Shown in pieces: positions 24,464-49,092 of a stretch of DNA of 64,000 nt. Under the pieces are notes generated by a model. It made no database searches, was not told where the DNA came from, and saw only the letters and a program-made list of their open reading frames with translations. The translations under genes were made by a program, and so were the position numbers. The DNA is taken from the NCBI GenBank assembly GCA_963743305.1, contig CAVUPH010000039.1, positions 52,913 through 116,912 of the forward strand, given 5' to 3'. Source of the DNA: an uncultured delta proteobacterium (GTDB taxonomy: Bacteria; Desulfobacterota; RBG-13-43-22). How positions within the stretch are numbered: the stretch's first letter is position 1; the number at the start of each line of letters is the position of its first letter.

Positions 24464-26389
24464 CTATAGACTCGAAATAAGGCTGAACAATCGCCGGCCT
24501 TCAGGCCGCGTTGGCGGTCTGAGGGCTTTCGGCCTCTTCCGCCCCGGGAAACCGGCCAAGGACCTCGGCCGGATCGGGGTCTGATGGTGGCTTAGGAAGA
24601 AGTCGGCGCCTGCTTTTCCCAGGTATTTTTCCAGCACCACCGGGTTGGTCTTGGCCAGGTCCACCAAAATCAATCCGTCCACCACCCGGCTGAATTGGGC
24701 ATCGATATTGAAGCCCAACAGCTTACCCCCTAATTTCAAATACTGTTTCAAGAAAATGGGAATGCCTTTCTGATCCGCTTCCAGTTCGGCGATCCAATCC
24801 GATACCTCGGCCGCATCCCGGATCATGGAAGCCACCGCCTGGTCCATCCAGCCCTTGCGGAGGTCCTGCCGGTAGGGGCGCTTGGCCTTGACCCAGCGGG
24901 CCAGCTCCGGACGATAATTTTGCTCCCGCAAGAATTTTATCAGCAGGGTTTTAGAAACGCGCCGGTAGTCGTCGCTGATGCTCACCGGCCCGAAGAGAAA
25001 GCGGTACCGGGGGTAGCGGACCACATACTGCCCGATGCCTTTCCAGAGCAGCATCAGGGTACTGAAGGCCTTTTGGTATTCCCGGCGGATGAAGGATCGC
25101 CCCAATTCCAGGGCGGGATGAACCTGCAGGAAAAAGTCGTTGTGAAATTTAAATAGGGAGGTGGTGTAAAGCCCTTTCTTCCCGTAGCGGCTTAAAATCA
25201 AATCCGTGGGCCCCAGACGGTAAGACCCCACCACTTCAAGGGTCTTCTTCTGCCAAAGAATCAGGTGGTGATAATGCGAGTCAAAAAGGTCCAGGTCGAT
25301 GGATTCTCCGGTCCCCTCCCCGGCCTCCCGGAAAGTGATTTCCCGCAACCGGCCCACTTCCCTTAAAACATATGGGATCTGAGAGGCGCGGGCCCAGAAA
25401 ACCTGCAAAGTCTTCCTGCTCCAGGAGCATCTGAGCATCGGGCAGATTGCGGACTTCTTCCAGCAGGAAATTCTTAACGGTGGGAACGACCAGAGGCTTC
25501 CAGGCCCGTCTCCGCTTCACCTGCTGCTTTTCTGCACTCTTTTGATTCAGAGGCAAGACGCTTACCCAGCAGATAGGTTCGCTGCCGGAGATAGTCGATC
25601 AGCTCCCGATCGTTTGGAAAACGCTCTATTTTTTTGAAGGGGATCGGCTGACCGATCTTGATTTCAATCCGGGAATCCATTTTGTTCAGCAGCTCATGGG
25701 ACAGCATGGCCGTCCGGAGCAGCGGGTGGATCAATCCCAGGAGATGAAACCAGGCGCTGTTTCTTCCCTGAAAATAGACCGGAACCACCGAGGCCCTGGT
25801 TTTCCTGATCAGGCCGGCCACCAGCTCTCCCCACTCCGGGTCGGTGATGGACCTCTTTTTCAAATGCCAGTGGGAGACTTCACCGGCCGGGAAAATCCCC
25901 AGCAGGTTTCCGTTTTTCAGCCAGTCGATGGACTCCCGCAGACCCTTTAAGGTTCTTCCCGGCCGATTCTTTCCGTCCAAAAGGGTCCACGAAAATCAGG
26001 TGATCCCGCACTTCCGGGATCCGTTCCAAAAGATAATTGGCCATGATCTTCACATCCGGCCGGACCTTGAGGAGCAGATCGGCCAGGACGAGGCCTTCGA
26101 TGCCTCCAAAAGGATGGTTGGCGACTACCACGACCGGTCCCCGACGGGGCAGACGGGCCCGGTCAAGCTCGGATATTTGGTAGCCGATGCGCAGTTGGGC
26201 CAGCGACCGCTCGAAGAAGGATCGGTCGTCCGATCCCCCGGCCACCTGGTCGTACATCCTGTTCAGGCGGGGAAAGGACAGCGCCCGTTCCAGAGAGGCC
26301 TCGATCAGAGGAAAAAATTTGCGGGGCCAGGGGCGATTGAACTGAAAATCTAATTTAAAGGGGAGGACTTCCGACCTTGTTGCTTCCAT
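24464..26389 (-). CDS. LPLAT + GNAT (OlsB-like) bifunctional acyltransferase, OlsF-like ornithine lipid synthase (two frameshifts)
   Basis: N-terminal VVVANHPFGGIEG and IFPAGEV (acyltransferase); C-terminal REVGRLREITFR...DLDLFD..Y, VGSYR, LELGRSF, LLWKGI and FGPVSIS (Acetyltransf_5). RBS GGAGG precedes ATG 26389. Confidence 0.78.
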
Positions 26390-26521: not shown

Positions 26522-26575
26522 TTAACAAAATTGATAGAATTCCTTCATCAAACTGTCACATTCCTACTATATCTT
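26522..26575 (+). promoter_or_regulatory. Pho-box-like promoter of the zinc-ribbon/HMA2 pair
   Basis: TTAAC(26522), GATAG, TTCAT(26544), GTCAC(26555). CCTTCATCAAACTGTCACA is close to the E. coli Pho box CTGTCATAAAACTGTCAC. TATCTT at 26570; ATG at 26582. Confidence 0.65.
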
Positions 26576-26581
26576 GGGGTC

Positions 26582-26932
26582 ATGGTTGATAAGGACACTA
26601 CTCCAATTCGATGTCCCCACTGCGAGTCCGAGGCTATCTATCGCTATGGCAAGACCTGGAACAAGAAACAGCGTTACTTCTGCCTGGTCTGCAGCCGGCA
26701 ATTCGTCCTCGATCCTGAAAGGGTATCGATGAAGGAGAAACCGACCTGCCCGGCATGCGGCCGGCCCATGCACGTCTATCGCCGTTATCCCCGGGTGATC
26801 CGGTTCCGTTGTTCCGGCTATCCCGACTGCCGCCACTATCTCAAAATGTTTCTCAAAGGAGGAATGTGCTACAATGAGCTACTACGTCCATCAAGTTCCT
26901 GGCCGACTGCGTATCAAATCGCCCTCGATTAA
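26582..26932 (+). CDS. Double zinc-ribbon protein (InsA-like N-terminal ribbon + topoisomerase-type C4 ribbon)
   Basis: CPHC...YRYGK...QRYFCLVCSRQF, then CPAC...FRCSGYPDC; no DDE transposase part and no inverted repeats. Confidence 0.65.
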   Translation: MVDKDTTPIRCPHCESEAIYRYGKTWNKKQRYFCLVCSRQFVLDPERVSMKEKPTCPACGRPMHVYRRYPRVIRFRCSGYPDCRHYLKMFLKGGMCYNELLRPSSSWPTAYQIALD

Positions 26933-27245
26933 AAACAATCAGACGGAAGCGGTGGTGGTGGAAAATCTTCTGAAGGAAATGGAAGGTATTAAATCCACCT
27001 CGGTCAGCACCCTGACCGGCAGCGTGGTAGTAAATTATGACTCTCGGATGGTCAGCGATCAAATGATCATCTCCCGATTGACCGACCTGGGACATTTTAA
27101 GCCGGCCCAGGCCAAAACCAACGACGAATATATCCAGGGGGCCTTTTCCACTGCCGGAGAGATCGTCTGGAAGGCCTTCTTCGGTTCTTTTGTGGATGTC
27201 GCCCTGGCCGGCACGCCGATATCATTTGTCTCCGTTTTGATGTAA
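26874..27245 (+). CDS. HMA2-domain protein with C-terminal hydrophobic segment
   Basis: MSYYVHQVPGRLRIK...GIKSTSVSTLTGSVVVNYD (HMA2 pattern, no CxxC); RBS GGAGG. Confidence 0.75.
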   Translation: MSYYVHQVPGRLRIKSPSIKNNQTEAVVVENLLKEMEGIKSTSVSTLTGSVVVNYDSRMVSDQMIISRLTDLGHFKPAQAKTNDEYIQGAFSTAGEIVWKAFFGSFVDVALAGTPISFVSVLM

Positions 27246-29537: not shown

Positions 29538-29959
29538 CAATTGGGGTCGATTTGAAGTTCTCCCCCCCTCCCTTTTAGACCCTCTCGGGAAATGAATACG
29601 AAGGAAAGTTTTTTTAGGCTTCGTTCGCGATGGAGGCGAAGAAACCCACCCACCCGATCATTGCGAGGGGTGAAGCGACAAATCGATCCTCGACAATTGG
29701 ATGATGGTCAGATAATGGTTTTTTAACCGAATTGTCATACTGGCCGACGTCCTTCGATTTTGCACCCGGCAATCTTTCAGAAAGCCTACCGAAAACTGAA
29801 TTCCCCTCCTGGAGTTCATTTCCTTCCCTGTAATTGAATCTTTATCAGCCGGTCATCCTCCCGTTACATTCCTCCGGTATGGTACTCCCCAACGTTCGGA
29901 TCACCGAGGTGATTCGGACTTATTAAAGATGTCATAATTGTCTGTACATACCACCGACC

Positions 29960-30043
29960 GTCATCCCCGAGTGTTTTTGTCGGGGATCCAGAATCGTAGC
30001 AGATAGGGGCTGGATTCCCGCCCAGAAGCACTGCGGGAATGAC
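29960..30043. repeat. REP-doublet-like palindromic element
   Basis: GTCATCCCCGAG...TCGGGGATCCAG...CTGGATTCCCGC...GCGGGAATGAC. Confidence 0.7.
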
Positions 30044-30285
30044 GATAAGAGAACATCGAGATAGTCGGTTTTATTATGAGACCGTTAATAATCCCCTCGG
30101 CTTTAAAATTATCTTCTCAAAACAAAATGATCCGCGTGGAAGCGTGAAGGAGGTGAGGCTTTTCGCGAGACGAACCCAACGAGTAAGACAGGTTTTCCTG
30201 TCCAAGGACACTAAATTGTTTACGGGAACGTATAGTAGAACAGACAACATTCTAAAATCTAACAAAAATTTGAAAGGAAAATAAG

Positions 30286-33312: not shown

Positions 33313-33460
33313 AAAAAGAACGCCCCGTGTAATCGAATTTTTATTTGCCGGTCATCCTCCCGCCACATTCTTCCTCTATCGTATTCTCAGAATCTGGGTA
33401 CCGCGGTGATCCGGACATAATCCACTTCGTGAATTGAAAAAAGGCTTCAGGAGGAAAGCG

Positions 33461-33731
33461 ATGGAAAAGAAACATTTTTGATCCGAAAAGGATCGGTATG
33501 GTCTTTTGCCCTCGTTGTTACGGCCAAGGCTATATAGAAGATCCGAGGCTTCAATGTTGTCCGGTGTGCCAAGGGTTTGGGTTGATCAAGAACGCTCCTC
33601 CTGTCGATCCCCATAGTCCTTTCGCCCCGGCTCGGACTGGATTCCCACCAATTCTCCGGGATAAGGGTATCCGTCTTATTTTACTTGTAATTCCTCGCCG
33701 GGTACCCTTCCTAGGTCTACGTCCCTCTTGA
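33461..33731 (+). CDS. Small CxxC...CxxC (DnaJ-zinc-finger-like) protein, 5' frameshifted
   Basis: RBS AGGAGG and ATG at 33461; CPRCYGQG...CPVCQGFG. Confidence 0.35.
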
Positions 33732-35824: not shown

Positions 35825-37024
35825 TTACGCTTTCAGCAACGGGGCCTTGTCGGTCAGTTCCCAGGGTAGCCCGATGTCCATGCGGCCCACATGTCCGTAA
35901 GCCGCCAGCTTGCGGTAAAAGCCGCCCTTGACCACGGCCGGCTGGTAGCGGAGGTTGAATTGTTTGATGATCCCGGCCAGACGGAAATCAAAATGGTTCT
36001 TGATCAGCCCGGAAATTTCTTTGTCCGGAATGGTGCCGGTGCCGAAGGTCTCCACCTCGATGCTGGCCGGTCGCGGGAGACCGATGGTATAGGTGAGCTG
36101 CACTTCACACTCCCGGGCCAGGCCGGCGGCCACCACGTTTTTGGCCGCGTAGCGGGCCGCGTAGGCCCCGATACGGTCGATTCGCAAGGGATCCTTGCCG
36201 CTCAGAGCCGCGCCGCTATGCCGGGCGTATTCCCCGTAGGTGTCGATGGCCGTCTTCCGGCCGGTCAACCCGGAATGGACAGCCGGTCCGCCGATCAGGA
36301 AAGGCCCGTCGGGATTGATGAAAATGCGGGTTCGGTCGTCCGGCTGGATCTCTTCGTCATGAAAAATCTGGTCCACCACCACTTCCCGGATATCGTCGGT
36401 CAACTTTTTCAAATCGGGCCCTCCGGCCTGGGGCGACATTTTCTGGCTGGCAATCACGGTCACACTGTGAATACGGGAGGGGTGCCCGCCACGGTATTCC
36501 ACGCCCACCTGGGTCTTGCCGTCCGGAGACAGGTAGGGCAGCACTTTTTGCAGACGGGCCGACGTCAGTTTCCTGGCCAGTTTATGGGCCAGCCACAGGG
36601 GCAGAGGGATCAGGGCCGCGGTCTGATTACAGGCGAAACCAAAAATGTTCACCTGGTTCTTGATCAGGATGCGGTCCATCTCCTCTTCCGAAATAGTGGC
36701 CTCATTAAAAAAAGTCTGGTCTTTGGGCGGCAGCTCCTTCAGGCTGGTGATGATGCTGCAGGTCTTGGCGTTGAAGGCCTGGTGCTCATAACCGATCAGG
36801 TTCAAGACCTTCCGGGCCACCCCGGGGAAATCCACCGTGGCGCTGGATTCGAACCGGGCGGCGATAAACAGGATGGCCGTGGCCACGGCGCATTCGGCGA
36901 TTACCCGGGAAAAAGGATCCTGCTGCAGAAAATGGTCCACAATGGCATCGCTGATCTGGTCGCAGAGTTTGTCGGGATGCCCTTCGGTGACCGACTCGGA
37001 CATAAAGACAAAATCCTCTTTCAT
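35825..37024 (-). CDS. Divergent methionine adenosyltransferase (MetK) paralogue
   Basis: SESVTEGHPDK, DGKTQV, GLTGRK, SGKD and AAYGH are retained. GAGDQG reads LIKNQV, GGPxGD reads GGPAVH and KVDR reads RIDR. Confidence 0.85.
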   Translation of the reverse strand: MKEDFVFMSESVTEGHPDKLCDQISDAIVDHFLQQDPFSRVIAECAVATAILFIAARFESSATVDFPGVARKVLNLIGYEHQAFNAKTCSIITSLKELPPKDQTFFNEATISEEEMDRILIKNQVNIFGFACNQTAALIPLPLWLAHKLARKLTSARLQKVLPYLSPDGKTQVGVEYRGGHPSRIHSVTVIASQKMSPQAGGPDLKKLTDDIREVVVDQIFHDEEIQPDDRTRIFINPDGPFLIGGPAVHSGLTGRKTAIDTYGEYARHSGAALSGKDPLRIDRIGAYAARYAAKNVVAAGLARECEVQLTYTIGLPRPASIEVETFGTGTIPDKEISGLIKNHFDFRLAGIIKQFNLRYQPAVVKGGFYRKLAAYGHVGRMDIGLPWELTDKAPLLKA

Positions 37025-37119
37025 GGGGTCTCCTTATTCATCTTATGCTGTCTATACCATTATTCTTAGGGTGATCTTATTGCACACTTTAGAATCGGAA
37101 CTTCTCTGCCGCGTTTTTT

Positions 37120-40100
37120 TCAGCCAAAAATTGATTGATTTTTGGCTGTTTCGTTGATCAGCAGGGGGGCCACGGCCGTCCCGCCGATGACCAGCCCGTC
37201 GATGAGCCCGACCGGCGAAAGCTGCATAAGGGACCGCAACCCGGGCACGAACAGGGTCGAGATCTGCAACAGCACGGAAGCGGCCAGGGCCTGGGTCAAC
37301 AAACGGTTGGGCGGCAGCTTTTCCTTGGAAAAGATACTGATATGGTCGGACCGGCAACTGAAGGCATGGAGCAACTGGCCGATGCTCAGGCTCATGAACG
37401 CCAGGGTATTGGCCTGGGGACCCCGGCCGTAGCGGACCAAGCCGTACCCGTAGGCCGACAGGGCACCGGCGGACAGCACCCCGGATTCGATCATGATCTT
37501 TTTAAAATCCTGCCGGCGGATGATCGGCTCTTTCGGGTCCCGGGGCGGTTTGGTAAGCACATCCGGCTCCGGCAGTTCCATGGCCAGGGCCAATCCGGGG
37601 AAGATGTCCGAGATCAGGTTGATCCAGAGAAGCTGCATGGCGTTCAGCGGCTCGCCCAGGCCGACCGCCAGCGAGCTGAAAACTACGATGATTTCGCTCA
37701 TGTTGGTAGCCAGCAGGAAATGAATGGCCTTGCGGATATTGTTGTAGATGGTCCGGCCCTGCTTGACGGCGATGATCATGGTTTCGAGGCGGTCATCTTC
37801 CAGCACCACGTCGGCCACCTCGCGGGCCACGTCGGTCCCGGATCTTCCCATGGCCACCCCGATGTCGGCCACTTTCAGGGCCGGTCCGTCATTGATCCCG
37901 TCCCCGGTCATGGCCACCACCCGGCCGGCCCGCTGCAGGGCCTGGACGATTTGCAACTTGTGGGCCGGGCTGACCCGGGCAAAGACCTGGACCTTTTCCG
38001 CCAGGGCCTCCAGCAAGTCCGGTTGCAGACTGTCCAGGTTGCTGGAATCCAGGATCTCCAGGTCCTCGTTGCGGTTCAGAGTCAGTGACCGGCCGATGGC
38101 GTAGGCGGTGGCCGACTGGTCGCCGGTGATCATGACCGTATCGATGCCCGCCGTGTGGAACTGGCCGATCAACTCCTTCACCCCTTCCCGGACCGGATCG
38201 CCCATGCCGACCAGGCCGAGCCAGGTCAGGCCGCCGACCGCATCGGGGTCTTCCAGAAGATCCGCCCCGTCCGACAGCAGCGCGTACCCCACGGCCAGAA
38301 CCCGCATGCCTTTTCCGGCCAGGCGCTCATTCTCCATTTCCAGTTCCAGACGGTCCTCTTCCGTGAGCGGTAATCGCTCCCCGTCACGCATCCAGAAATC
38401 GCAAAGGGCTACGACCTCCTGGGGGTTCCCCTTGACCGCCGCTACCCGTTGCCCTTCCTCGGCGGTCCGGTGCAGGGTGATCATGTAGTTTCGGGTTTCC
38501 GTACGCAGGGCCGTTTTTTCAACCGGGAACTGTTCCCGGAGACTCTGAATGTTGACACCGGCCGTCAAGGCCAGGTGAATGAAGGCGTTCTCCGTGGAAG
38601 ATCCGCTGACCAGCACATTACCGTCCTGGAAGACCGCGAGCCCCTTGCCCTGGACTTCACGAGTTTTTTGCTGGTACACGTCGGCGTCGGGGATGAGGGA
38701 GCTGACTTCGCTTTCATTGCAGAGGACTGAAATATGGATGAGCTGAAGCAACTCCGGCCGGATGTAAGGATTGACGACTTCTTCCCCCTGCTTGAACTGA
38801 TCTTTTTCCAGGTGGATGCGCCGCATCCCCACATTGAGCATGACCACGGACATCCGGTTCAGCGTCAGGGTCCCGGTCTTGTCCATGCAGATGGTCTGGA
38901 CCGACCCCAGGGTTTCCACGGCTTCCAGATGCCGGATGAGGACATTGTATTTGCGCATGCGCCGCAAGCCCAGGCCCAACGTGGTGGTGGCCACGGTGGG
39001 CAAGCCTTCCGGGACGGCCGCCACGGCCAGGGAAATGGAGCTCTTCAGCATTTGGAGAAATCCGTAACCCCGAAGAAGGCCGATGACGAACACCAGACCG
39101 CAGACCGCCCCGGAAATCAAGACCAATTGACTGCCCATGGTATCGAGCTGCCGTTCCATGGGGGTTTCCGGGGTCTGGGATTCCCCCATCAGGGTCTGGA
39201 TCCGGCCGATTTCGGTAAACCGGCCGGTGCCCACCACCAGAGCCAATCCCTGCCCCCCGGTCACCAGGGTGCCCATATAGGTCATGTTGGTCCGATCCGC
39301 CAGCGCCACCTCCATCTGCAGCGACGCCCCGTCGGACGCCTGCCCAAAGACCACCAGGGTCTCCGAGGTTTTGGAGACCGGCAGGCTCTCCCCGGTCAAC
39401 GCGGATTCATCGATGGTCAGGTTATGGGCCTCGATCAGCCGGGCATCGGCGGTTATATATGTACCCGGACGCAGCACCAGGATATCCCCCGGGACCACCT
39501 CTTCGGCCCTGATTTCTTCGGCCTTCCCGTCCCGGACTACAAGGGCGTGGGGCCGCACCAGGGTCTTCAGAGAGTGAATGGTCTTCTCGGACTGGCTTTC
39601 GGTGACATAGCCGATGACGGCATTGATCAACACCACCGAGGCGATGACCACGGCATCGGCGATCCCGGCCGTGGCCACGGAAATACCGGCCGCCACCCCC
39701 AGCAAGGCTACCGGGAGAGATTTGAACTGGTCGATGAAGATGCTGAAGCCCGAGCGGGGTACCGACTCGGGCAGGACATTGGGGCCGAATTTTTTCAGGC
39801 GGGAAAGGGACTCCGACTGGGGCAACCCCAGAGCGGAATGGGAGCCGAGCTGTTCCAGCAGATCATGGGCCGCCAGGAAATGCCAGGGTTGGGCCGTCTG
39901 CTCTTCGGAATGGACGACCAGATTCCGGACCTTCCGACGGCTGGAGGCGGTTTTTTGACCGAAAACAGGGGCCAGGGGATGGCGGGATTTCGCCTCGGCC
40001 GATTCCGTCCGGCGGTTTCCAGACTGTCTTTCCGGAAAAAAATGGGGATAAAGGCCGGCCTTTCTTTCCCGGCCTTCCTTTATCCCGTTGTTTGGCTGAA

Positions 40101-40326
40101 AATTAAGGACCAGTGTTCGAAGCAGCGCTCCCAGATCCTCCGGGGTCCGATGACCGTTGAACCGGATGAGTACATGGCCGGTCAGAATATTGGCGGAAAA
40201 AGAATATACTTCCCCGTCTTGGTTCAATTGATTGGCCAGATACTGCTTCAATTCCTCCGAACGGTAAAGGCCCTGGACCCGGTACCGGGCTCGGCCCCGG
40301 ACCACCGTATGGATGGCTTCAACCAC
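37120..40326 (-). CDS. P2A-type (Ca2+/cation) P-type ATPase with N-terminal HMA2-like domain
   Basis: VEAIHTVVRGRARY...ANILTGHVLI (HMA2-like); TGES, VPEGL, DKTGT, KGNP, MITGD and GDGINDGPAL; M5 TNMSE and M6 WINLISD. Confidence 0.9.
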   Translation of the reverse strand: MVEAIHTVVRGRARYRVQGLYRSEELKQYLANQLNQDGEVYSFSANILTGHVLIRFNGHRTPEDLGALLRTLVLNFQPNNGIKEGRERKAGLYPHFFPERQSGNRRTESAEAKSRHPLAPVFGQKTASSRRKVRNLVVHSEEQTAQPWHFLAAHDLLEQLGSHSALGLPQSESLSRLKKFGPNVLPESVPRSGFSIFIDQFKSLPVALLGVAAGISVATAGIADAVVIASVVLINAVIGYVTESQSEKTIHSLKTLVRPHALVVRDGKAEEIRAEEVVPGDILVLRPGTYITADARLIEAHNLTIDESALTGESLPVSKTSETLVVFGQASDGASLQMEVALADRTNMTYMGTLVTGGQGLALVVGTGRFTEIGRIQTLMGESQTPETPMERQLDTMGSQLVLISGAVCGLVFVIGLLRGYGFLQMLKSSISLAVAAVPEGLPTVATTTLGLGLRRMRKYNVLIRHLEAVETLGSVQTICMDKTGTLTLNRMSVVMLNVGMRRIHLEKDQFKQGEEVVNPYIRPELLQLIHISVLCNESEVSSLIPDADVYQQKTREVQGKGLAVFQDGNVLVSGSSTENAFIHLALTAGVNIQSLREQFPVEKTALRTETRNYMITLHRTAEEGQRVAAVKGNPQEVVALCDFWMRDGERLPLTEEDRLELEMENERLAGKGMRVLAVGYALLSDGADLLEDPDAVGGLTWLGLVGMGDPVREGVKELIGQFHTAGIDTVMITGDQSATAYAIGRSLTLNRNEDLEILDSSNLDSLQPDLLEALAEKVQVFARVSPAHKLQIVQALQRAGRVVAMTGDGINDGPALKVADIGVAMGRSGTDVAREVADVVLEDDRLETMIIAVKQGRTIYNNIRKAIHFLLATNMSEIIVVFSSLAVGLGEPLNAMQLLWINLISDIFPGLALAMELPEPDVLTKPPRDPKEPIIRRQDFKKIMIESGVLSAGALSAYGYGLVRYGRGPQANTLAFMSLSIGQLLHAFSCRSDHISIFSKEKLPPNRLLTQALAASVLLQISTLFVPGLRSLMQLSPVGLIDGLVIGGTAVAPLLINETAKNQSIFG

Positions 40327-40332
40327 GTGCGG

Positions 40333-41013
40333 CTATTCGTTCTTCTTGCCCCGTCCCCGGGTGATCTCCGGTGCAGAGGGGGTTTCGCCCTCGCTAGAGA
40401 CGGATCTCGCCCCGCTGCCCTTGGGAAGAAGGGAAGAGGCCACTTCCTTGACTCCCTCCACCACGCCGACCAGCATATCCTTCACTGATCGGACGGCGGT
40501 ATTGCCGATGGCGCCGGCGGCCTCGATGGCGCCGCCCACGGCCACTTTGGCCACTTCCTCGACGTTGCCCCCCACTTCCTTCGTGGCCTCGATCACGCCG
40601 TCCACGGCCCGCCGGGCTACCAGGCCTACGTCGGCCCCGATCTCCGCGGCGCCTTTCACGGCCCCTTTGACTGTCTGGCTGGCCACCGAAACCAAGTCGC
40701 CGCCCACGTCGCTGATGCCCATGATCACGCCCTTGGCCACGCTCTTGGTGCTGAGGATCAGGCCCGTGCCGACCTCCTCCGTAGCCTGGATAGTGCCCTT
40801 GACCACATCCTTGGCGACGCTCAGGCTTTCCGTGACCACCGCGCCGCCGGCCCGCAGGGTCGTGGAGACCGTGTTGCGCACCAGGCTGACGATCTCGGAT
40901 TCGATTTCATTGATGCCCTTCAAGCTGCTGACCACGCCTTCCTTGACGGAAGTGCCGGCCTTCCCGATGGTTTCATCCACATTGACGCCTGTCTTCTCCT
41001 GTTTTTCAGTCAT
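40333..41013 (-). CDS. Gly/Val/Ala-rich protein with 22-residue amphipathic repeats
   Basis: Five tandem 22-mers (VKGTIQATEEVGTGLILSTKSV / AKGVIMGISDVGGDLVSVASQT / ...); TAATG stop-start coupling with the upstream gene. Confidence 0.8.
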   Translation of the reverse strand: MTEKQEKTGVNVDETIGKAGTSVKEGVVSSLKGINEIESEIVSLVRNTVSTTLRAGGAVVTESLSVAKDVVKGTIQATEEVGTGLILSTKSVAKGVIMGISDVGGDLVSVASQTVKGAVKGAAEIGADVGLVARRAVDGVIEATKEVGGNVEEVAKVAVGGAIEAAGAIGNTAVRSVKDMLVGVVEGVKEVASSLLPKGSGARSVSSEGETPSAPEITRGRGKKNE

Positions 41014-41501
41014 TACTTTTCTCCCTTAGGTTTCGATTTCAAAAAAATGTTTAAGGCGTACCAGAAGGCCGTGTACCAGGCCGGGGCCATGAAGTTGCCG
41101 CGGCTGATTTGGTAAATGCCCATGATCAGCAGGGCCCCGAAAGACAGGGTCCCCGCATCCATTTCCCCGCCGGTAAATTTTTTGATCTTATTTTCTACCT
41201 GGTTATATGTTTCAGATACCTGTAGATAAATATTGGAAGAAGGCGAACCGATTTGTTTGGCCTGTCCGGGGAAATAGGTTCGGGCCAGATCTTTCATCAT
41301 TGCCGGGTCCAGGGAATGCTTGATCAGGATGCTGCCGGTGACGGGATTGGCCGCCACCTCATGGATATTGGGATACTTCCCCGCCAGGTCCTTCAGAGAC
41401 TGGAAAAAAGCAACGTCCCCTTTTCTCGATGGGATTCTGAGCCGAAACCGCCCGGAGGTGGCGTGGCTGATATAGGCATCAGAAGGCAAATTGTTGAACA
41501 T
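41013..41501 (-). CDS. HMA2-domain membrane protein
   Basis: AYISHATSGRFRLRIP...VAANPVTGSILIKH; C-terminal hydrophobic GALLIMGIYQ..RG...PAWYTAFWYA. Confidence 0.8.
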   Translation of the reverse strand: MFNNLPSDAYISHATSGRFRLRIPSRKGDVAFFQSLKDLAGKYPNIHEVAANPVTGSILIKHSLDPAMMKDLARTYFPGQAKQIGSPSSNIYLQVSETYNQVENKIKKFTGGEMDAGTLSFGALLIMGIYQISRGNFMAPAWYTAFWYALNIFLKSKPKGEK

Positions 41502-41535: not shown

Positions 41536-41838
41536 TTACCTTTGATCTTCTGCTTCAATGGTACCGTCCACGCCTGTCGCCGCCATGGCTCCGGACCCGG
41601 CTTCTTCCAATTCGGCCCTGGTCTCGGCTATTAGGTCCTCCACCACTTCCTGGGCCTCGGCCGCCACTTCCCGGCCTTTCTGGTAAAGCAGAAAACCGCC
41701 CTTGATCGCGGCTTTGGCCATGGGCTTGACAACACTGGCCAAAACAGGTATGACCACAGGTGCCAGAATGGAAGAACCGATACCAATGGCCAAACCCGTG
41801 ACGATATTGCCTTTCAGACCGTTATCGAATAGACCCAT
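41536..41838 (-). CDS. DUF5132-like small membrane protein (GxxxG helix + acidic helical tail)
   Basis: GLAIGIG..ILAPVVIP...KPMAKAAIKGG..LY.K.RE..AEA.E..EDL.AE.RAE pattern; RBS AAGGAG. Confidence 0.8.
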   Translation of the reverse strand: MGLFDNGLKGNIVTGLAIGIGSSILAPVVIPVLASVVKPMAKAAIKGGFLLYQKGREVAAEAQEVVEDLIAETRAELEEAGSGAMAATGVDGTIEAEDQR

Positions 41839-41946
41839 ATCATCTGCTCCTTTCTCTTTGAAATAAAAATAATAGCTTTTTTCTCTCTACTATAATAACA
41901 ATTAAATCATTATTTGACTACCCAATAGCAATTTCAGGGAAATTTC

Positions 41947-42663
41947 ATGAAACCGATCCCTTTGACAAAACGAATAATCTTTGCCCTGGACGTTGAAACC
42001 CCGGGAGAGGCTCGGGCCTGGGTGGAAAAACTGGAAGACCGGGTGAAGTTTTTTAAAGTCGGGCTTCAGCTTTTTCTGGCCGGAGGGTTCGAAATCGTCG
42101 ACTGGATTTTGAAGCGCGGCTCGGAGGTGATGCTGGATCTCAAGTTCTTCGATGTGCCCCAGACCGTGGCCTCCGCCGTCAAGCAACTGGCTGGCCGGGG
42201 GGTATCTTTTACCACCGTTCATGGCAACGACGCCATCCTCCGGGCCGCGGCCGAAGCCAAACAGGGGGTGAAAATCCTGGCGGTTACTGTTTTGACCAGC
42301 CTGGACCAGGGGGACCTGAACGACCTTGGTTTTCAATGCTCCGCGGAAGATCTGGTCCTATCCCGGGCTCGACGGGCCCTGCAGGTCGGCTGCGACGGGG
42401 TGGTCTCCTCAGGCCTGGAAGCGCCGAGGTTGCGAAAGGAACTGGGAGAGAATTTCCTGGTAGTGGTGCCGGGGGTCCGGCCCGTTGAAAACCGAGTCGA
42501 TGACCAGAAACGGATTGTCACCGTCCGGGATGCTTTTTTGAACGGCGCCGACTACGTGGTCATCGGCCGCCCCTTGAAACAAGCCGCCGATCCCCTGGCT
42601 CTGGCCGCGGAGATGCAGCAGCAGATCCAAGAAGCCTTAAACGATCCCCATCCGATAAAATAA
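41947..42663 (+). CDS. pyrF: Orotidine-5'-phosphate decarboxylase
   Basis: IFALD, FFKVG, MLDLKFFDVPQT, AVTVLTS, VVPGVR, DDQKR and VIGRP. Confidence 0.95.
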   Translation: MKPIPLTKRIIFALDVETPGEARAWVEKLEDRVKFFKVGLQLFLAGGFEIVDWILKRGSEVMLDLKFFDVPQTVASAVKQLAGRGVSFTTVHGNDAILRAAAEAKQGVKILAVTVLTSLDQGDLNDLGFQCSAEDLVLSRARRALQVGCDGVVSSGLEAPRLRKELGENFLVVVPGVRPVENRVDDQKRIVTVRDAFLNGADYVVIGRPLKQAADPLALAAEMQQQIQEALNDPHPIK

Positions 42664-43078: not shown

Positions 43079-43987
43079 ATGGCTGAAAAATTAAACTTTG
43101 CCCCGGCTGAAAATCGCTGTATTTGGATGGATGCGGGCGTGGTTTCCTTTAAATTGTGCAATAATAATTTCAACTGTCTGAACTGCAACTTCGATAAGGG
43201 CATGTACAAGAAGGCCCAGGACGAAAGCTCCGGCAGTGTGCAGGTCAAACAGGACAAGCAACCCACCGAGGTGTGGATGAAAAAATTCTTGTCCCTGCCG
43301 GCCTCGCAGCGCAAATGCCGGTATATGCTGAACGGCGCCGTGGCTCATAAAATTTGCCCCAACGCCTTTCAATGCGGCGAATGCACCTATGACCAGATGA
43401 TGCAGGACCGGATACCGCCGGCCGGCGCCTCCAAAATTCAGGACATCCCCCTCGTGGGCGGTTTTGGACAGCCGGAGGGCTACTACTATCACCGGGGCCA
43501 TAGCTGGGCGGTCACCGAATTCGGCGGCCGGGTCCGAGTCGGACTGGACGACTTCGCCCAAAGAGTGGTGGGGAACATTGAAGAAATCAACCTCCCCAAG
43601 GTCGGACAGAAAGTAAGCCCGGGCGCGCCGGTGTTGTCCCTGAAACGGAAAAAACAGGAGGTTCAGGTCCTGGCCCCGATCGACGGCACGGTGACCCATG
43701 TCAACAGTAAGATGGCCGGCCATCCGGAACTGCTCAACCAGGAACCGTACCAGGACGGCTGGTTGTTCGTCGTCGAACCCAACGCCTTGAAGAACGATTT
43801 GAAGGGCCTGTTATACGGAAAAGAAGCCAACCAGTGGCTTTTGGAGGAAAAAGACCGTCTCGTCACCCATATCCAGAGCGATATCGGAGCCACTGCCCTG
43901 GACGGGGGAATGCCGGCCCAGGACTTCGCCGGTCATCTAAAAGGCAATAAATGGGCCCACTTCGTCCGCCAGTTCCTCTTGTCCTAA
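43079..43987 (+). CDS. GcvH-fold protein with duplicated N-terminal Cys-rich motif
   Basis: C.WM..G.V..K.C...FNC..C.FD and C.YM..G.V..K.C...F.C..C.YD repeats; GcvH-like YYHRGHSW...VRVGLDDFA...APIDG.V..VN...PY.DGWL; no ESVK lipoyl motif. Confidence 0.8.
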   Translation: MAEKLNFAPAENRCIWMDAGVVSFKLCNNNFNCLNCNFDKGMYKKAQDESSGSVQVKQDKQPTEVWMKKFLSLPASQRKCRYMLNGAVAHKICPNAFQCGECTYDQMMQDRIPPAGASKIQDIPLVGGFGQPEGYYYHRGHSWAVTEFGGRVRVGLDDFAQRVVGNIEEINLPKVGQKVSPGAPVLSLKRKKQEVQVLAPIDGTVTHVNSKMAGHPELLNQEPYQDGWLFVVEPNALKNDLKGLLYGKEANQWLLEEKDRLVTHIQSDIGATALDGGMPAQDFAGHLKGNKWAHFVRQFLLS

Positions 43988-44023
43988 CCCGTTCCGTTTA
44001 GGCAACCTAATCTGACTCTCCAT

Positions 44024-44058
44024 AAGGGCAGGGGTTTTAATCCTCCTGCCCTTTCTTT
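44024..44058 (+). terminator. Rho-independent terminator
   Basis: AAGGGCAGGGG...CCTCCTGCCCTT followed by TCTTT. Confidence 0.65.
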
Positions 44059-44312
44059 ATAGTTTCTATTTGACTCCCCCCCCTAAAGTGTTTAAAAATT
44101 TACCTACAACGCTTTCCCGCCGGACAGGTTGCTTCTTTTTTGGATTTAGGCCTAGCCAAAAAAAATTGAATTTTTTTTGGCTGTAACAAAAACCACTTTC
44201 AAAGATTTAAAAACCGTTTTTCATATTAGATTCTTACATCCATTGTTAGAGACAAATTCTCAGAACAATGGATGTAAGAATCTAACCCCAACAAGGTTCC
44301 AAGGAGTACGCT

Positions 44313-47300
44313 ATGTCTCAAATCACGCTGGCCATCAATGGACGCACCGTTCATTCCGAATCCGGAAAAACGATTTTGGAAGTCGCCAGAGAGGAAGGGA
44401 TATTCATTCCGACCTTGTGTCATTTCCCGCTGCTGAAGCCGGAAGAGGCCTGCCGGATCTGCGTGGTCGAAGTCCGGGGTTCGGATCGGCTAATCGCCTC
44501 CTGCGCCACACCGGCTTCGGAGGGCCTGTCGGTCCGGACCGACTCGGCAGCCGTGGTCGAGGCCCGACGTCAAATCCTGGAACTCCTGCTGGAACAGCAT
44601 TACGGAGATTGCCTGGCTCCTTGCCAGTTGACCTGTCCGGCCCGGATCGATATCCAGGGCTACCTGGCCCATATTGCCCGGGGGGACTACCTGGAGGCGG
44701 TAAAATTAATCAAGGAAAGGAACCCTTTCCCCCTGGTGGTGGGGCGGGTTTGCCCTCACCCTTGCGAGGACGTCTGCCGGCGGAACCGGGTGGAGGAACC
44801 TCTGGCCATCAATCCCCTGAAACGATTTGTCGCCGATTATGCCTGGGCCCAGGGCGTCTATGTGAAACCGGAAATCGCGCCGGCCAGCGGACATAAGGTG
44901 GCCGTCATCGGCAGCGGACCGGGGGGGCTCTCGGCGGCTTATTATCTCCGCCGTTCCGGCCACCAGGTGACACTATTTGAATCCAAAGATAAGCCGGGCG
45001 GCATGCTGCGCTATTGTATACCGGAATACCGACTGCCCAACGATCTCTTGGATCAGGAAATAAAGGGCGTTACCGATCTAGGGGTCGATCTCCGCTGTAA
45101 CCAGGCCTTAGGCCAGGATTTCATGCTGGCCCAACTTCGCGGCCAGGGATATGAAGCCGTCTTTCTGGGGATCGGGGCCTGGAAATCCACTCGCCTGGGG
45201 CTTCCCGGGGAAGAACTGCCCGGCATCACTACCGGCCTGGATTTCTTGACCCTGACCGCCGCCGGAAAACCACCGGAACTGGGGAAAAAAGTGCTGGTCA
45301 TCGGCGGCGGGAATGCCGCCATGGACGCGGCCAGGACGGCCGTCCGTCTCGGGGCGGAAACCGTGACCCTTCTTTACCGGCGCTCTCGAAAGGAAATGCC
45401 GGCCCACCCGGAAGAGGTGGCGGCGACGGAGGAAGAGGGCACCCGGATGGAATTTCTGGTTTCACCAACCCAACTTTTGATCCGCAACGACCGGGTTAAG
45501 GGTCTGGAATTCATACGCAACGAACTCCGGGAAGCGGACGGCAGCGGACGGGCCCGGCCTTTTCCCATACCGGGTTCCGAGACCCAAATCGAAGCCGATA
45601 CGGTCATCGTGGCCATCGGACAATCGGTGGACCTGTCTTTTATGGAGCATGACCCGGAAATCAAGGGCCTGGCCCTGACCAAGTGGGGAACTCCCCAGGC
45701 CGAGGCCACTACCCTGCAAACTTCCCTGCCTTATCTGTTTGTCGGCGGTGATTTTTACCGCGGCCCGCAAACGGTTATTCAGGCCATTGCCGACGGACGC
45801 CGAGCCGCCCTTTCCATCCACCAGTACCTTAACGGGCAGACCCTCCAAGCGGAACCCGTGCCTTTCAACATCAGTAAAGGACGGCTGAGGGAGGTGGACC
45901 CAGCCAATTTCGAAGGTCTCCCCAGGTCTCCCCGACAAAAAGGCTTTCACCGGCCCTTGGCCGATCGGCATCAAAACTTTCAAGAGGTGGAATTCACCCT
46001 GAACGAAAGCCAGGCCCAGGCCGAGGCTGCTCGCTGCCTCTCCTGCGGCTGTTTGGATGCCTTCGACTGCCGCCTGCGCGCCTATGCCCAGCTCTACCGG
46101 GTGGAAATCGACAAGCTGCCGATCTGGACCAAACGGATGCACCCTCTTAAAGCAGACCATCCCGAAATCGCCATCGATCCCAACAAGTGCATCACCTGCC
46201 GACAGTGCGTCCATGGTTGTTCGGAATACCAGGTCCAGGAAGCGTTTGAACTGAACGAATTGCCCGCCTTGTCCGAGGGGGGCCCCCCGATCTATTCTCC
46301 GGCCATCAATGAACGTTGCGTTCATTGCGGACTATGCGTAGCCCACTGTCCGACCGGCGCCCTGGAAGAAAAGGCACCGCCGCCGCCCGGTCCCTGGAAA
46401 TTGGAAAAAATAAAAACCACTTGCGCCTACTGCGCTGTAGGTTGCCAATTGTTTCTGGAAAAGACCGGAAACCACCTGGTCAAGGTAGATGGGGTAACGG
46501 GGATTCCTCCCAGTTTTGGCCATCTTTGCCTTAGGGGACGCTTCGGGTTTGATTTCGTCCAGCACTCCGAAAGGTTAACCCAGCCCCTGATTCGGGAAGC
46601 CGATCGCTTCCGGGAGGCCTCCTGGGAAGAGGCCCTGACCCTGGTGGCCCGTCGCTTCACCGAAATCCGCGACCGGCAGGGGCCCAAATCCCTGGCCGCT
46701 CTAACCTCCGGCCGGATGACCAATGAAGAAAACTATCTCCTGCAGAAGCTGGTGCGGGTTTTGTTTCGAAACAACGCTATCGACCAGACCACTCGAATGA
46801 GACACGGCACTTTCCTGAAGGGATTGGAAACGGCCTTTGGACTGGGCGTTATGACCAACTCCATCGGGGAAATCGAACGGGCCCGGGTCTTACTGGTCAT
46901 CGGATCCAATCCCACGCGAGAGCATCCGGTGATCGGGGCTGCCATGAAGCGGGCCGTACTCCGGGGTGCCCGTCTCATCCTGGCCGACCCCGGGAAAAAT
47001 GAACTGGCGAATATGGCCCACCTCCGCTTGAACCCTCGCCCGGGCACCCATATCGCCTGGATCAATGGGCTGATGCGTATCATCCTCGATGAAGGGCTTT
47101 ACGACCGGGATTATGTCAGGGAACGCACCGAGGGATTTGAGGAATGGGCCGCCTCCCTGACTTCCTTCGCCCCGGCCATTGTCTCCGAGATAAGCGGGAT
47201 TCCTGAAAAAGACCTGATAACGGCCGCCCGGATGGTCGTCCGAGACAAAGTCGGGATCTTCCTCAGCCGGGAAACCACCCGAAATGCCCGAGGAGAGGAT

Positions 47301-48050
47301 CTGGTCAAAGCCCTGGCCAATCTGGCCCTGCTCACCGGAAGCCTGGGTTTTCCCGGAGCCGGGCTGAATCCCCTGCGCACGGAGAGCAACAGTCAGGGGG
47401 CCTGCGACTTGGGCTGCCTGCCCCAGTTCTTTCCCGGCTATCAGCCGGTCGGGAATTTCGAGGCTCGAAAAAAAATGGAAATCACCTGGGGAGTGCGAGG
47501 ACTTTCCGGAGAAACTGGGCCGTCACCCGAAGAGATGTTGGAAGGGCTTCTAAAAAAGGAAATCCGGGGTTTGTATCTCTTGAGCGGGGATCCCCCCGAT
47601 TCCGAACCGCCAGAACCTCGACTGCTTGAGGCCTTGAAGTCCCTGGACTTCCTGGTAGTCCAGGATATTTTTCTCAGTGCGGCGGCCCAAGCGGCCCAGG
47701 TAGTGTTGCCGGGGGCCTCTTTCGCCGAAAAGGATGGTACCATTACCAATACCGAGCGCCGCGTCCAACGGATACGTCGAGCCCTCCGACCGCAGGGTAA
47801 GGCCAAACCCGATTGGCAGGTTATCGGTGATATCGGGACGCGCATGGGCTATCCCCTGTCTTATCCCGACACCCGATCCATCTTTTATGAAATCCGCATG
47901 GTGACCCCTATTTATTCCGGAATCACTTACGACCGCCTGGAAAAAGTCGGCCTCCAGTGGCCCTGCCCGACCCTGGATCATCCCGGAACGCCCATCCTGC
48001 ACCAGGACCAATTTGCCCGGGGCCTGGGAAAGTTTCAGCCGGTATTATAG
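44313..48050 (+). CDS. Multi-domain NAD(P)H-linked Fe-S oxidoreductase: 2Fe-2S + GltD-like + 2x4Fe-4S + FdhF-like domain without metal ligand
   Basis: IPTLC..CRICVVE..ASC; C.APC..TCPA; GRVCPHPCE; GSGPGG; GGGNAAMD; EAARCLSCGC; CITCRQC and CVHCGLC; TTCAYCAVGC; PGASFAEKDGT. No C-terminal molybdopterin-binding domain. Confidence 0.85.
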   Translation: MSQITLAINGRTVHSESGKTILEVAREEGIFIPTLCHFPLLKPEEACRICVVEVRGSDRLIASCATPASEGLSVRTDSAAVVEARRQILELLLEQHYGDCLAPCQLTCPARIDIQGYLAHIARGDYLEAVKLIKERNPFPLVVGRVCPHPCEDVCRRNRVEEPLAINPLKRFVADYAWAQGVYVKPEIAPASGHKVAVIGSGPGGLSAAYYLRRSGHQVTLFESKDKPGGMLRYCIPEYRLPNDLLDQEIKGVTDLGVDLRCNQALGQDFMLAQLRGQGYEAVFLGIGAWKSTRLGLPGEELPGITTGLDFLTLTAAGKPPELGKKVLVIGGGNAAMDAARTAVRLGAETVTLLYRRSRKEMPAHPEEVAATEEEGTRMEFLVSPTQLLIRNDRVKGLEFIRNELREADGSGRARPFPIPGSETQIEADTVIVAIGQSVDLSFMEHDPEIKGLALTKWGTPQAEATTLQTSLPYLFVGGDFYRGPQTVIQAIADGRRAALSIHQYLNGQTLQAEPVPFNISKGRLREVDPANFEGLPRSPRQKGFHRPLADRHQNFQEVEFTLNESQAQAEAARCLSCGCLDAFDCRLRAYAQLYRVEIDKLPIWTKRMHPLKADHPEIAIDPNKCITCRQCVHGCSEYQVQEAFELNELPALSEGGPPIYSPAINERCVHCGLCVAHCPTGALEEKAPPPPGPWKLEKIKTTCAYCAVGCQLFLEKTGNHLVKVDGVTGIPPSFGHLCLRGRFGFDFVQHSERLTQPLIREADRFREASWEEALTLVARRFTEIRDRQGPKSLAALTSGRMTNEENYLLQKLVRVLFRNNAIDQTTRMRHGTFLKGLETAFGLGVMTNSIGEIERARVLLVIGSNPTREHPVIGAAMKRAVLRGARLILADPGKNELANMAHLRLNPRPGTHIAWINGLMRIILDEGLYDRDYVRERTEGFEEWAASLTSFAPAIVSEISGIPEKDLITAARMVVRDKVGIFLSRETTRNARGEDLVKALANLALLTGSLGFPGAGLNPLRTESNSQGACDLGCLPQFFPGYQPVGNFEARKKMEITWGVRGLSGETGPSPEEMLEGLLKKEIRGLYLLSGDPPDSEPPEPRLLEALKSLDFLVVQDIFLSAAAQAAQVVLPGASFAEKDGTITNTERRVQRIRRALRPQGKAKPDWQVIGDIGTRMGYPLSYPDTRSIFYEIRMVTPIYSGITYDRLEKVGLQWPCPTLDHPGTPILHQDQFARGLGKFQPVL

Positions 48051-49058
48051 GTCAGAACAATGGATGGAAGAATCTATTCCGGTTATCTTTTCTTTTTCAA
48101 AATCAAATAATTCCTGGTGATCGCCGCCGGAGGCGATCACCACTTTTCGTTCCGAAGTTACCTGACCGATGATTTCAGCCGTGATGTTCCGTTCCCTGAA
48201 AGTCGTCAGGACTTCTCCGGTCCGGGATGGGGCCGCCGCCAAAATAAAACTGAAACTCTGGAAGCAGACCAACCAATCCAGTAATTCAATCGCCGGCGGG
48301 ACGGGGATGGCCGTCAGATCCACTAAGGCCCCTTTTCCCGAATTTTCCATCATGATCGACAGGGTCCCCAGGATTCCGGCATTACTGACATCCTTGGCCG
48401 CAAAGGCCAATCCCCTTTCGGCGATCAGCGGCATGGTTTCCAGGCGAAAGAGAAGCTCTTCCGTGCTTTTGCCTGAATTCGCATCCCAGCTCACCACCGA
48501 GCGGCAGCCGCGCTGCCCTTTGAGGTCCACCGCCAGGATCAGGTTGTCCCCCGAGGCCGCCAGGTGACTGCGCAAAACCCGACGGCCATAGCCCAGGATG
48601 GCCACCGCCAGAGAGGGGACGGCAATCGAGGGATCGGGATGCAGATGCCCTCCCACCATGGGCACCCGGAGTTTCTCGCAGCCGTGACGGATCCCCTCTA
48701 CCACTTGAGATCGGCCTTTTTCTTCGCCGTGGGACAACACATTGACCAAAGCGATCGGCCGGCCGCCCATGGAATAAATATCGTTGACCGTCACCATAAT
48801 CGAGGCCTTGCCGGCGGCGTAGGGTTCCTGCATCAAGAGCTGGGGCATGATCCCATCCGCCGCCAAAAGCAGGAACCCGTCGCCCCAGGGGATCACGGCG
48901 GCGTCATCCCCGTAGTTAGGCAACTGGGGCCCATAGGGGGTGCCGGCCACCAGTCTTTCAAAAACCGCTTCGATAGGCTGTTTTCGGAGAAGTCCGGGAT
49001 ATTTTCTTATCTCTTGAACCAACTTTGAAACTTCTTGGGAAGATCGGGGATTAGACAT
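48045..49058 (-). CDS. AIR synthase-related protein (PurM/ThiL/SelD superfamily, Sll0787-like)
   Basis: GDDAAVI, LLAADG, VNDIYSMGGRP, VGGH and KDVSNAGILGT. Confidence 0.75.
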   Translation of the reverse strand: MSNPRSSQEVSKLVQEIRKYPGLLRKQPIEAVFERLVAGTPYGPQLPNYGDDAAVIPWGDGFLLLAADGIMPQLLMQEPYAAGKASIMVTVNDIYSMGGRPIALVNVLSHGEEKGRSQVVEGIRHGCEKLRVPMVGGHLHPDPSIAVPSLAVAILGYGRRVLRSHLAASGDNLILAVDLKGQRGCRSVVSWDANSGKSTEELLFRLETMPLIAERGLAFAAKDVSNAGILGTLSIMMENSGKGALVDLTAIPVPPAIELLDWLVCFQSFSFILAAAPSRTGEVLTTFRERNITAEIIGQVTSERKVVIASGGDHQELFDFEKEKITGIDSSIHCSDL

Positions 49059-49092
49059 GGTCATCCTTTACCGGTAGCAGATGGAGCGCTGC

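Follow-up and report, generated by a model that had tools for sequence, protein, structure and literature searches.

A 64,000-nucleotide stretch of DNA from an uncultured delta proteobacterium (assembly GCA_963743305.1, contig CAVUPH010000039.1, positions 52,913 to 116,912; the whole of this stretch is called the window here) carries at 35825–37024, on the minus strand, a gene for a 399-residue protein with the fold of methionine adenosyltransferase (MAT), the MetK enzyme that makes S-adenosylmethionine (SAM). In this MetK-like protein (MKL) the methionine pocket is remodelled and the site for triphosphate, Mg and K is intact. Because that pocket has been rebuilt, because the gene is an extra copy and because it always lies directly behind one type of cation pump, MKL probably does a different job together with the pump. 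We consider it likely that MKL is not a SAM synthetase and that it is functionally tied to the pump. More specifically, our preferred but still tentative explanation is that MKL is a neofunctionalised MAT-fold protein that would no longer make SAM and would serve as a triphosphate- and Mg-binding partner of the pump.

The active site of the MetK-like protein

The gene has an ATG start, a TAA stop and an AAGGAG Shine-Dalgarno sequence 6 nucleotides 5′ of the ATG, and its product matches all three Pfam S-AdoMet_synt domains (PF00438, PF02772 and PF02773; E 3e-34, 7e-32 and 2e-54). The closest solved structures are bacterial MetKs (E 1e-95 and weaker), and MKL is 45% identical to the canonical MetK of its own genome. 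An AlphaFold2 monomer model built on a shallow alignment has a mean predicted local distance difference test score (pLDDT) of 64, falling below 50 across residues 239–282, which are active-site loops at the dimer interface; a Foldseek search with this model matched only MetK structures (TM score 0.68–0.73, E 5e-36). The model, within the limits of a prediction, confirms the MAT fold and is unfit for reading the pocket. The first-pass annotation of this DNA, which had placed a MetK paralogue at exactly these coordinates, is borne out by the domain matches, the family score given below and the fold search.

For comparison at the level of residues, MKL was aligned with MAFFT to E. coli K-12 MetK (NC_000913.3; numbering of the mature protein is used throughout), to the canonical MetK of the same genome and to 78 relatives. 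The relatives come from genome loci, for which one genome per species was scanned and the best 80 of 268 relatives were kept; residue counts are over 79 clade members, that is, 78 of these loci plus the window, with the truncated loci L043 and L048 left out. The 79 clade rows were compared at specificity-determining positions with 81 canonical rows, after P0161, P0162, P0163, P0168, P0179, P0221, P0223, P0235, P0259 and P0267 had been dropped from the canonical set as odd.

Several differences fall on the ligands of methionine. At the position of E55, a ligand of the methionine α-amino group, MKL has R57 (codon 36854–36856), and arginine stands there in 79/79 clade members as against glutamate in 96% of the canonical rows. 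Likewise, D238, the methionine amino ligand contributed by the partner subunit, is replaced by H250 (codon 36275–36277; histidine in 79/79, aspartate in 100% of the canonical rows), and K269 by R281 (codon 36182–36184; arginine in 79/79, lysine in 100% of the canonical rows). These three residues are invariant among members labelled as at least five phylum-level groups. Other replacements are frequent: L98 takes the place of Q98 (66/79) and is followed by proline (P99 in 68/79; S99P in the window), so that the gating loop starts with L98-P99; P241 stands for R229 (60/79); and within the GAGDQG motif of E. coli, G117-D118 have become K122-N123 (codons 36656–36661), with asparagine at 118 in 66/79, aspartate in the other 13, and lysine or arginine at 117 in 51/79. 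Beyond what had been noticed on first pass, T43C, F262L and T227D/E are each found in 79/79 and G258S in 78/79, and G54A, E129Q, H189Q, G253E and V270I are further fixed differences between the clade and canonical rows. The gating loop itself (E. coli 100–105) is variable among clade members, and 6–7 residues are inserted close to the C-terminus.

The other half of the active site is untouched. H16-P17-D18-K19 (codons 36968–36979; E. coli H14, D16 and K17) are kept in 79/79, as are E42 and K165, and the triphosphate/Mg block R256, K257, K277 and D283 (within 36176–36259; E. coli R244, K245, K265 and D271) is invariant both in these 79 and in the wider clade. The nucleoside site is conserved in part: D163 (window D168) stands in 79/79 and F230 (window F242) in 67/79, and of its other contacts T227 is D/E in 79/79 and R229, which contacts through its backbone, is proline in 60/79. 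All six substitutions named in the first-pass annotation (E55R, Q98L, D118N, R229P, D238H and K269R) and all seven residues that it held to be retained (H14, D16, K165, R244, K245, K265 and D271) reappear in the alignment, and its generalisation that methionine/SAM contacts are replaced and Mg-triphosphate residues kept holds across the 79 members. As placed by homology, the former methionine pocket is shown by these residues to have switched from acidic (E55, D118, D238) to basic (R55, H238, R269 and mostly K/R117). Because R55, H238 and R269 are invariant in 79/79 across phylum-level groups, the substitution pattern, judged from the alignment, is far beyond chance and is not drift. An invariant acidic-to-basic rebuilding of one half of an active site, with the other half left alone, is in effect a natural experiment on the half-reactions of MAT, and it points to a new ligand.

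It is informative to set these changes beside what is known of the enzyme. In MetK, H14 assists cleavage of the C5′–O5′ bond, and work by Taylor and Markham from 1999/2000 is said to have found kcat about 1000-fold lower in D118N and D238N, with a milder loss of tripolyphosphatase activity. We take Glu70, Asp258, Gln113, Ser247, Arg249, Phe250, His29, Lys181, Lys265, Lys285, Lys289 and Asp291 of human MAT to be the equivalents of E. coli E55, D238, Q98, T227, R229, F230, H14, K165, K245, K265, K269 and D271, respectively. According to PMC6850014, the methionine nitrogen in human MATα2 bonds to Glu70 and to Asp258 of the partner subunit and the oxygen to Gln113; adenine is contacted by Ser247 and the backbone of Arg249 and stacks on Phe250; and His29, Lys181, Lys265, Lys285, Lys289 and Asp291 are catalytic. 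The same source describes patient variants, including Asp258Gly and Lys289Asn, in which SAM synthesis is lost and phosphatase activity is unaffected. These hypermethioninaemia variants of human MATα1 carry changes at the equivalents of H250 and R281 and, with SAM synthesis lost and tripolyphosphatase left (PMC6850014), display the phenotype that would be predicted for MKL. The human variants are loss-of-function alleles of a real MAT, whereas in MKL the changes are fixed and invariant and basic residues have been gained along with them, which indicates a selected new function.

Gene copies, clade and pump linkage

The genome from which the window comes (43 contigs, 90% complete) holds a second match to the metK family TIGR01034, on contig C7, which scores 588.9 bits as compared with 365.3 for MKL, a difference of 224 bits. 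This canonical metK lies directly upstream of the S-adenosylhomocysteine hydrolase gene (ahcY), and together they make up the housekeeping pair of the methyl cycle. In each of the five further carrier genomes that were tested (labelled Manganitrophus, two Nostocales, one Nitrospirota and one Geobacter) a canonical copy at 536–622 bits likewise coexists with a look-alike at 362–405 bits. Set against canonical MetK (EC 2.5.1.6; TIGR01034; E. coli MetK, PDB 1FUG/7LL3), MKL thus shares the three-domain fold, the Mg/K/triphosphate ligands and, in its core clade, the nucleoside contacts D163, K165 and F230, but differs by E55R, D238H, Q98L/S99P, K269R, D118N, a variable gating loop and the C-terminal insertion; it is moreover an extra copy that sits in a P-type ATPase operon and, in the loci seen, never beside ahcY.

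The look-alikes form a clade of their own. In a tree of 137 rows (IQ-TREE, quick search, LG+G4), 46 rows bearing the substitutions (21 core members, 14 divergent representatives and 11 metagenome members) fall on one side of a branch and 91 others on the other, with a support of 99.7 in the Shimodaira–Hasegawa-like approximate likelihood ratio test (SH-aLRT); the canonical MetKs of the carrier genomes are among the latter. Left out of the trees were the N-terminally aberrant or partial sequences P0159, P0180, P0184, P0186, P0212, P0247 and P0254 and representatives outside 360–440 residues. The clade is marked by C43, R/H55, H238, L262 and R269 together with intact H14, D16, R244, K245, K265 and D271, and the window protein, which carries this signature (C45, R57, H250, L274 and R281), falls inside it. 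The two checks that the first-pass annotation had proposed, for a canonical metK elsewhere in the genome and for a single clade of cluster-associated MetK-like proteins with these substitutions, thus both bear it out.

Representatives at 50% identity add more divergent sequences that share the H238/R269 signature. In this divergent part of the clade (14 representatives) the triphosphate/Mg residues are invariant, K165 is replaced in 8/14 and the aromatic residue F/Y230 is lost in 10/14. With these two residues so often missing, the feature common to the whole clade appears to be the triphosphate site. Look-alikes of cyanobacteria share 68–73% identity with those of Nitrospirota or of the window genome, and for the canonical MetKs of these genomes the figure is 55–58%; within Nostocales the order is reversed (81% for look-alikes, 89% for canonical MetKs). 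These identities suggest that MKL has been transferred between phyla as well as being constrained. Mean column identity is 81% over 62 MKL sequences labelled as several phylum-level groups. The distribution is patchy: a look-alike is present in 27 of 301 genomes sampled from the phylum of the window (20 of 200 genera) and was not found in the only genome of the same genus that was searched (94% complete). Cultured strains of Nostoc, Hydrococcus, Tolypothrix and Chroococcidiopsis carry both MKL and the pump, which makes the question of what MKL does directly testable.

The partnership with this pump is the decisive context and was absent from the first-pass annotation. The gene upstream of MKL (37120–40326, minus strand) encodes a P2A (Ca-type) P-type ATPase of 1068 residues with Pfam E1-E2_ATPase, Cation_ATPase_N/C, Hydrolase and HMA_2 domains, the last of these being the CoBaHMA domain of the calcyanin literature (bioRxiv 10.1101/2024.07.07.602159; PMC8890360). 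The CoBaHMA domain occupies residues 1–80 at the N-terminus (40087–40326) and is found, as is its G11-R12-x-R14 motif, in 69 of 70 complete MKL-linked ATPases. The best NCBIfam match of the ATPase is of PMR1 type at 618 bits, below the cut-off of 798, and it stays below every equivalog cut-off; its closest solved relatives are SPCA1 (E 1e-149) and Listeria LMCA1. It keeps DKTGT, PEGLP and the ion-site residues N/E of transmembrane helix 5 (TM5) and N..D of TM6. The stop codon of the ATPase and the start of MKL are 95 nucleotides apart (37025–37119), with AAGGAG before the ATG; over 70 loci the spacer has a median of about 40 nucleotides and is zero or less in 17, of which 14 have a 4-nucleotide ATGA overlap.

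An ATPase homologue lies directly upstream of MKL on the same strand in 80/80 genome loci, as a complete reading frame in 65, cut by a contig end in 10, frameshifted in 2 (L003 and L035), N-terminally short in 1 (L061) and as a remnant in 2. In the latter, both Xenococcaceae metagenome-assembled genomes, only a 112-residue C-terminal piece of the pump precedes an intact MKL (L047, 5773–6102; L055, 132–461); the remnants and frameshifts may stem from faulty assembly or from genuine decay of the pump gene. A control was provided by a separate sample of 80 MetK loci from metagenomes, with flanks of varying length in both groups. There an ATPase is upstream in 9 of 11 signature-bearing loci (8 adjacent, 1 past a gap of 1.15 kb), the other two having a weaker ATPase-like match downstream and no upstream flank, respectively, as compared with 0 of 69 canonical metK loci. 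Furthermore, among the 301 genomes of the phylum MKL occurs in 27, the pump (at E ≤ 1e-180) in 26 and both in 25. The two genomes with MKL only are G138, which is 79% complete and has the gene at a contig start, and G153; the only pump match outside the MKL carriers (in G085, one of 274 such genomes) shows 43% identity and has no N-terminal part. These counts show that MKL and one subfamily of Ca-type pumps are inherited together, with their genes in the same orientation and their translation often coupled. It is unusual for a Ca-type P-type ATPase to be paired so nearly obligately, across several phyla, with a soluble protein that resembles an enzyme, and we know of no P2A pump of the SPCA1/PMR1, LMCA1 or SERCA kind with a soluble enzyme-like partner.

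What MKL may do with the pump

We propose that MKL would act with the pump on the cytoplasmic side of the membrane, where it would bind ATP or inorganic tripolyphosphate (PPPi) and run the phosphatase half-reaction native to MAT, in which PPPi gives pyrophosphate (PPi) and phosphate (Pi); alternatively, a related reaction might be carried out on a polyanionic ligand held in the new basic pocket. (Poly)phosphate chemistry would in this way be coupled to the pumping of divalent cations, in a cluster that often lies among genes for phosphate acquisition. Triphosphate or polyphosphate hydrolysis as the actual activity of MKL is possible, though we hold to it with some reserve. The first-pass annotation had likewise proposed an NTP/tripolyphosphate hydrolase or an adenosyltransferase for another nucleophile. 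The window resembles an island of phosphate-stress genes: besides pstSCAB and PhoH it carries two metallophosphoesterase genes, genes for an OlsB-like acyltransferase and a glycosyltransferase, and a second CoBaHMA-ATPase. PstS, CorA and PhoH lie within 10 kb of MKL in 17, 10 and 8 of the 80 loci, respectively; a histidine kinase is present in 18 loci and an MGS-like protein in 10.

Adenosyl transfer to an anion, or sensing and regulation, is nearly as good a reading as the phosphatase. In the first of these, MKL would be an adenosyltransferase for an anionic nucleophile held by R55, H238 and R269, with PPPi hydrolysed afterwards; this is rather unlikely overall. The anion might be, for instance, an inorganic oxyanion, a sulfur or selenium compound, or a thioether acid without an amino group. 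With H14, D163 and K165 in 79/79 and F230 in 67/79, the nucleoside site may well be intact, and the invariant switch of the pocket from acidic to basic suggests that it has acquired a specific ligand and is not simply vacant. Nonetheless, the wider pump-linked clade is often without K165 and F230, no candidate substrate pathway is conserved beside the gene in the 80 loci, and the gating loop, which in MAT closes over the second substrate, is variable in this clade.

It is just as improbable, though worth considering, that MKL is a regulatory subunit, non-catalytic or slow, that would sense ATP, PPPi or polyphosphate and modulate the pump, possibly through the basic CoBaHMA domain. Strict linkage to the pump, frequent translational coupling and the presence of a CoBaHMA domain on 69/70 linked pumps all agree with this, and an enzyme paralogue turned regulator has a precedent in the prozyme of S-adenosylmethionine decarboxylase (AdoMetDC), as described in PMC6221367. 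However, all catalytic residues of the phosphatase half-site are invariant across phyla, which seems to exceed what sensing would need, and contact with the pump is without support. A predicted complex of two MKL copies with pump residues 1–195 scored 0.00 against a mark of 0.32; with an uncertain partner fold and no controls, this speaks neither for nor against such contact.

That MKL is in truth another SAM synthetase of the cell, perhaps an isozyme for stress or phosphate starvation that binds methionine in an altered way, is very improbable. In a protein search that lists at least 120 clusters at 72–95% identity, every name given to a relative is SAM synthetase or methionine adenosyltransferase, and the three Pfam domains and the TIGR01034 score, which exceeds the equivalog cut-off of 309.4 bits, favour the name. 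Against it, both methionine amino ligands are replaced in 79/79, the human enzyme no longer makes SAM when the corresponding Asp or Lys is changed in patients (PMC6850014), a canonical metK is present in 6/6 carrier genomes examined, and the pump is absent from all 69 canonical metK loci. The look-alikes of all six genomes examined pass the same cut-off, which means that it does not separate MKL from MetK and that pipelines will name MKL a methionine adenosyltransferase; annotation and metabolic models would thereby credit carriers with a second SAM synthetase, which MKL almost certainly is not. A decaying, functionless duplicate can be dismissed, since nothing but divergence from canonical MetK (45% identity) speaks for it, and the intact frame, the 81% mean column identity, the conserved synteny and the higher cross-phylum identity of look-alikes than of canonical MetKs speak against it.

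Several observations weigh against the reading that we prefer, in which MKL has left SAM synthesis for phosphate chemistry with the pump. The passing of the metK equivalog cut-off is one. The activity proposed is, furthermore, one that we infer from residues alone, and because H14, D163, K165 and F230 are all kept in the core clade, transfer of the adenosyl group to some other nucleophile would fit equally. K269R is a conservative change, and Q98L alone would not disable the enzyme, because human Gln113Ala retains 76% activity (PMC6850014). Operon linkage by itself is no proof of physical or mechanistic coupling, and cyanobacterial loci share with the window only the ATPase and sometimes the DUF5132 and CoBaHMA genes. 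Finally, the link of the MKL operon to phosphate is loose. A search for Pho-box-like arrays of three KTNAY units in 11-bp phase, a motif taken from another phylum that could miss a divergent box, found 3 exact arrays in the window as compared with 0.26 expected, and none with up to one mismatch in the promoter of the operon (41839–41946).

The nearest parallel to this gene set comes from calcium biomineralisation. In the neighbourhood of ccyA, the calcyanin gene, of Microcystis aeruginosa PCC 7806, a DUF5132 protein and small CoBaHMA proteins that end in a helical hairpin occur with a Ca2+ transporter, according to bioRxiv 10.1101/2024.07.07.602159 and PMC8890360; the former discusses DUF5132/CoBaHMA proteins beside a calcium-carbonate gene. 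That neighbourhood has calcyanin and a Ca2+/H+ exchanger, whereas the MKL operon has a P-type ATPase, and the passages searched in the CoBaHMA/ccyA papers make no mention of adenosylmethionine, MetK or a P-type ATPase partner. Compared with the P2A Ca2+-ATPases (SPCA1/PMR1, LMCA1 and SERCA), the pump aligns over the full catalytic core and keeps the DKTGT, PEGLP and TM5/TM6 ion-site residues, but differs by its extra N-terminal CoBaHMA domain and by NCBIfam scores below cut-off. In the MAT-paralogue, tripolyphosphatase and CoBaHMA/DUF5132 literature we found no published description of a pump-linked MetK-like family; a mention in Gaschignard et al. 2024 (Proteins 92:776) or in supplements is possible.

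The pair of MKL and pump offers a way into the CoBaHMA/DUF5132 gene sets, as yet unexplained, which have been discussed for bacterial calcium biomineralisation and are seen near phosphate-starvation genes. Taken to its furthest, and as speculation that is more likely wrong than right by a wide measure, the MAT fold might here be the first soluble enzyme partner of a P2A cation pump, with a chemistry new to the fold made possible by the basic pocket (R57, K122, H250 and R281). This chemistry might be the turnover of tripolyphosphate and pyrophosphate or the adenosylation of an inorganic anion; it would belong to a membrane system that loads Ca2+ and is built around CoBaHMA, DUF5132 and 22-residue-repeat proteins, and it could serve to control the deposition of Ca-phosphate or Ca-carbonate, or the mobilisation of polyphosphate under phosphate stress. 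The compartment that the first-pass annotation imagined beside MKL is likewise a hypothesis, one suggested by the CoBaHMA, DUF5132 and repeat proteins; the 50 reading frames of the window scanned against Pfam gave no match to a shell, bacterial microcompartment (BMC), encapsulin or gas-vesicle family, in a scan that did not include a search for calcyanin.

The rest of the operon and the window

Three genes precede the pump on the minus strand. The first gene of the operon encodes a 100-residue DUF5132 protein with one N-terminal membrane helix predicted from hydropathy (41536–41838; PF17195, E 3e-10), and homologues are found in 42/80 loci by tblastn. It is followed by a 162-residue CoBaHMA protein with a hydrophobic C-terminal segment (41013–41501; HMA_2, E 1.4e-17), whose single-domain family occurs in 56/80 loci, and then by a protein of 226 residues (40333–41013) made of eight 22-residue repeats rich in V, G, A, K and E, which produce autocorrelation peaks at lags 22 and 44. 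The repeat protein matches no Pfam or NCBIfam family and its nearest ESM Atlas clusters are all unnamed; by tblastn it is present in 30/80 loci, none of them among the cyanobacterial ones. In a sediment metatranscriptome (X1), 6% of sampled words were found, and contigs mostly 90–95% alike were spread over 25 of 30 bins, with one contig of 446 nucleotides bridging the junction of the repeat-protein and ATPase genes; these contigs derive from relatives and are no proof that the operon of this organism is transcribed.

The operon is separated by a divergent promoter region of 108 bp (41839–41946) from a pyrF-like gene on the plus strand (41947–42663; OMPdecase, E 8.5e-43). An open reading frame of 144 codons at 41902–42336 on the minus strand was rejected as a gene, as it runs antisense inside the pyrF-like gene. 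Further along, 43079–49064 holds a 302-residue GcvH-domain protein, a 1245-residue fusion of GltD-like flavoprotein, ferredoxin and molybdopterin-oxidoreductase parts, and an AIR-synthase/SelD-like protein; none of these genes is found in the 80 related loci. A pair of plus-strand genes at 26531–27245 encodes a 133-residue zinc-ribbon protein and a 123-residue CoBaHMA protein, and such genes lie near MKL in 21/80 and 31/80 loci, respectively, mostly on the opposite strand.

Two of the KTNAY arrays, at 29830–29867 and 33329–33366 on the plus strand, are located in a promoter-like stretch of about 100 bp that is duplicated; the exact three-unit matches fall at 29830–29867 and 33329–33355. They precede small unrelated reading frames (30039–30284 and 33498–33731) and, after these, a metallophosphoesterase gene and a gene for a CoA-disulfide-reductase-like protein. 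An array with one mismatch stands before pstS at 13367–13404 on the minus strand.

The second P-type ATPase of the window (14560–17679, minus strand; 1039 residues) likewise has an N-terminal CoBaHMA domain and DKTGT. In TM4 of this protein IPSGIS replaces PEGLP, and five residues are deleted from the WINLISDIFPG motif of TM6, so that its ion-binding site looks degenerate; no MetK-like gene lies beside it, and a ParA-like reading frame and pstSCAB are found downstream. Elsewhere on the minus strand, the overlapping reading frames 25880–26389 and 25474–25980 match positions 44–129 and 146–263 of the Acyltransf_2 profile and are probably one acyltransferase gene (25474–26389) split by a frameshift or an assembly error, which adjoins an OlsB-like Acetyltransf_5 gene (24464–25438).

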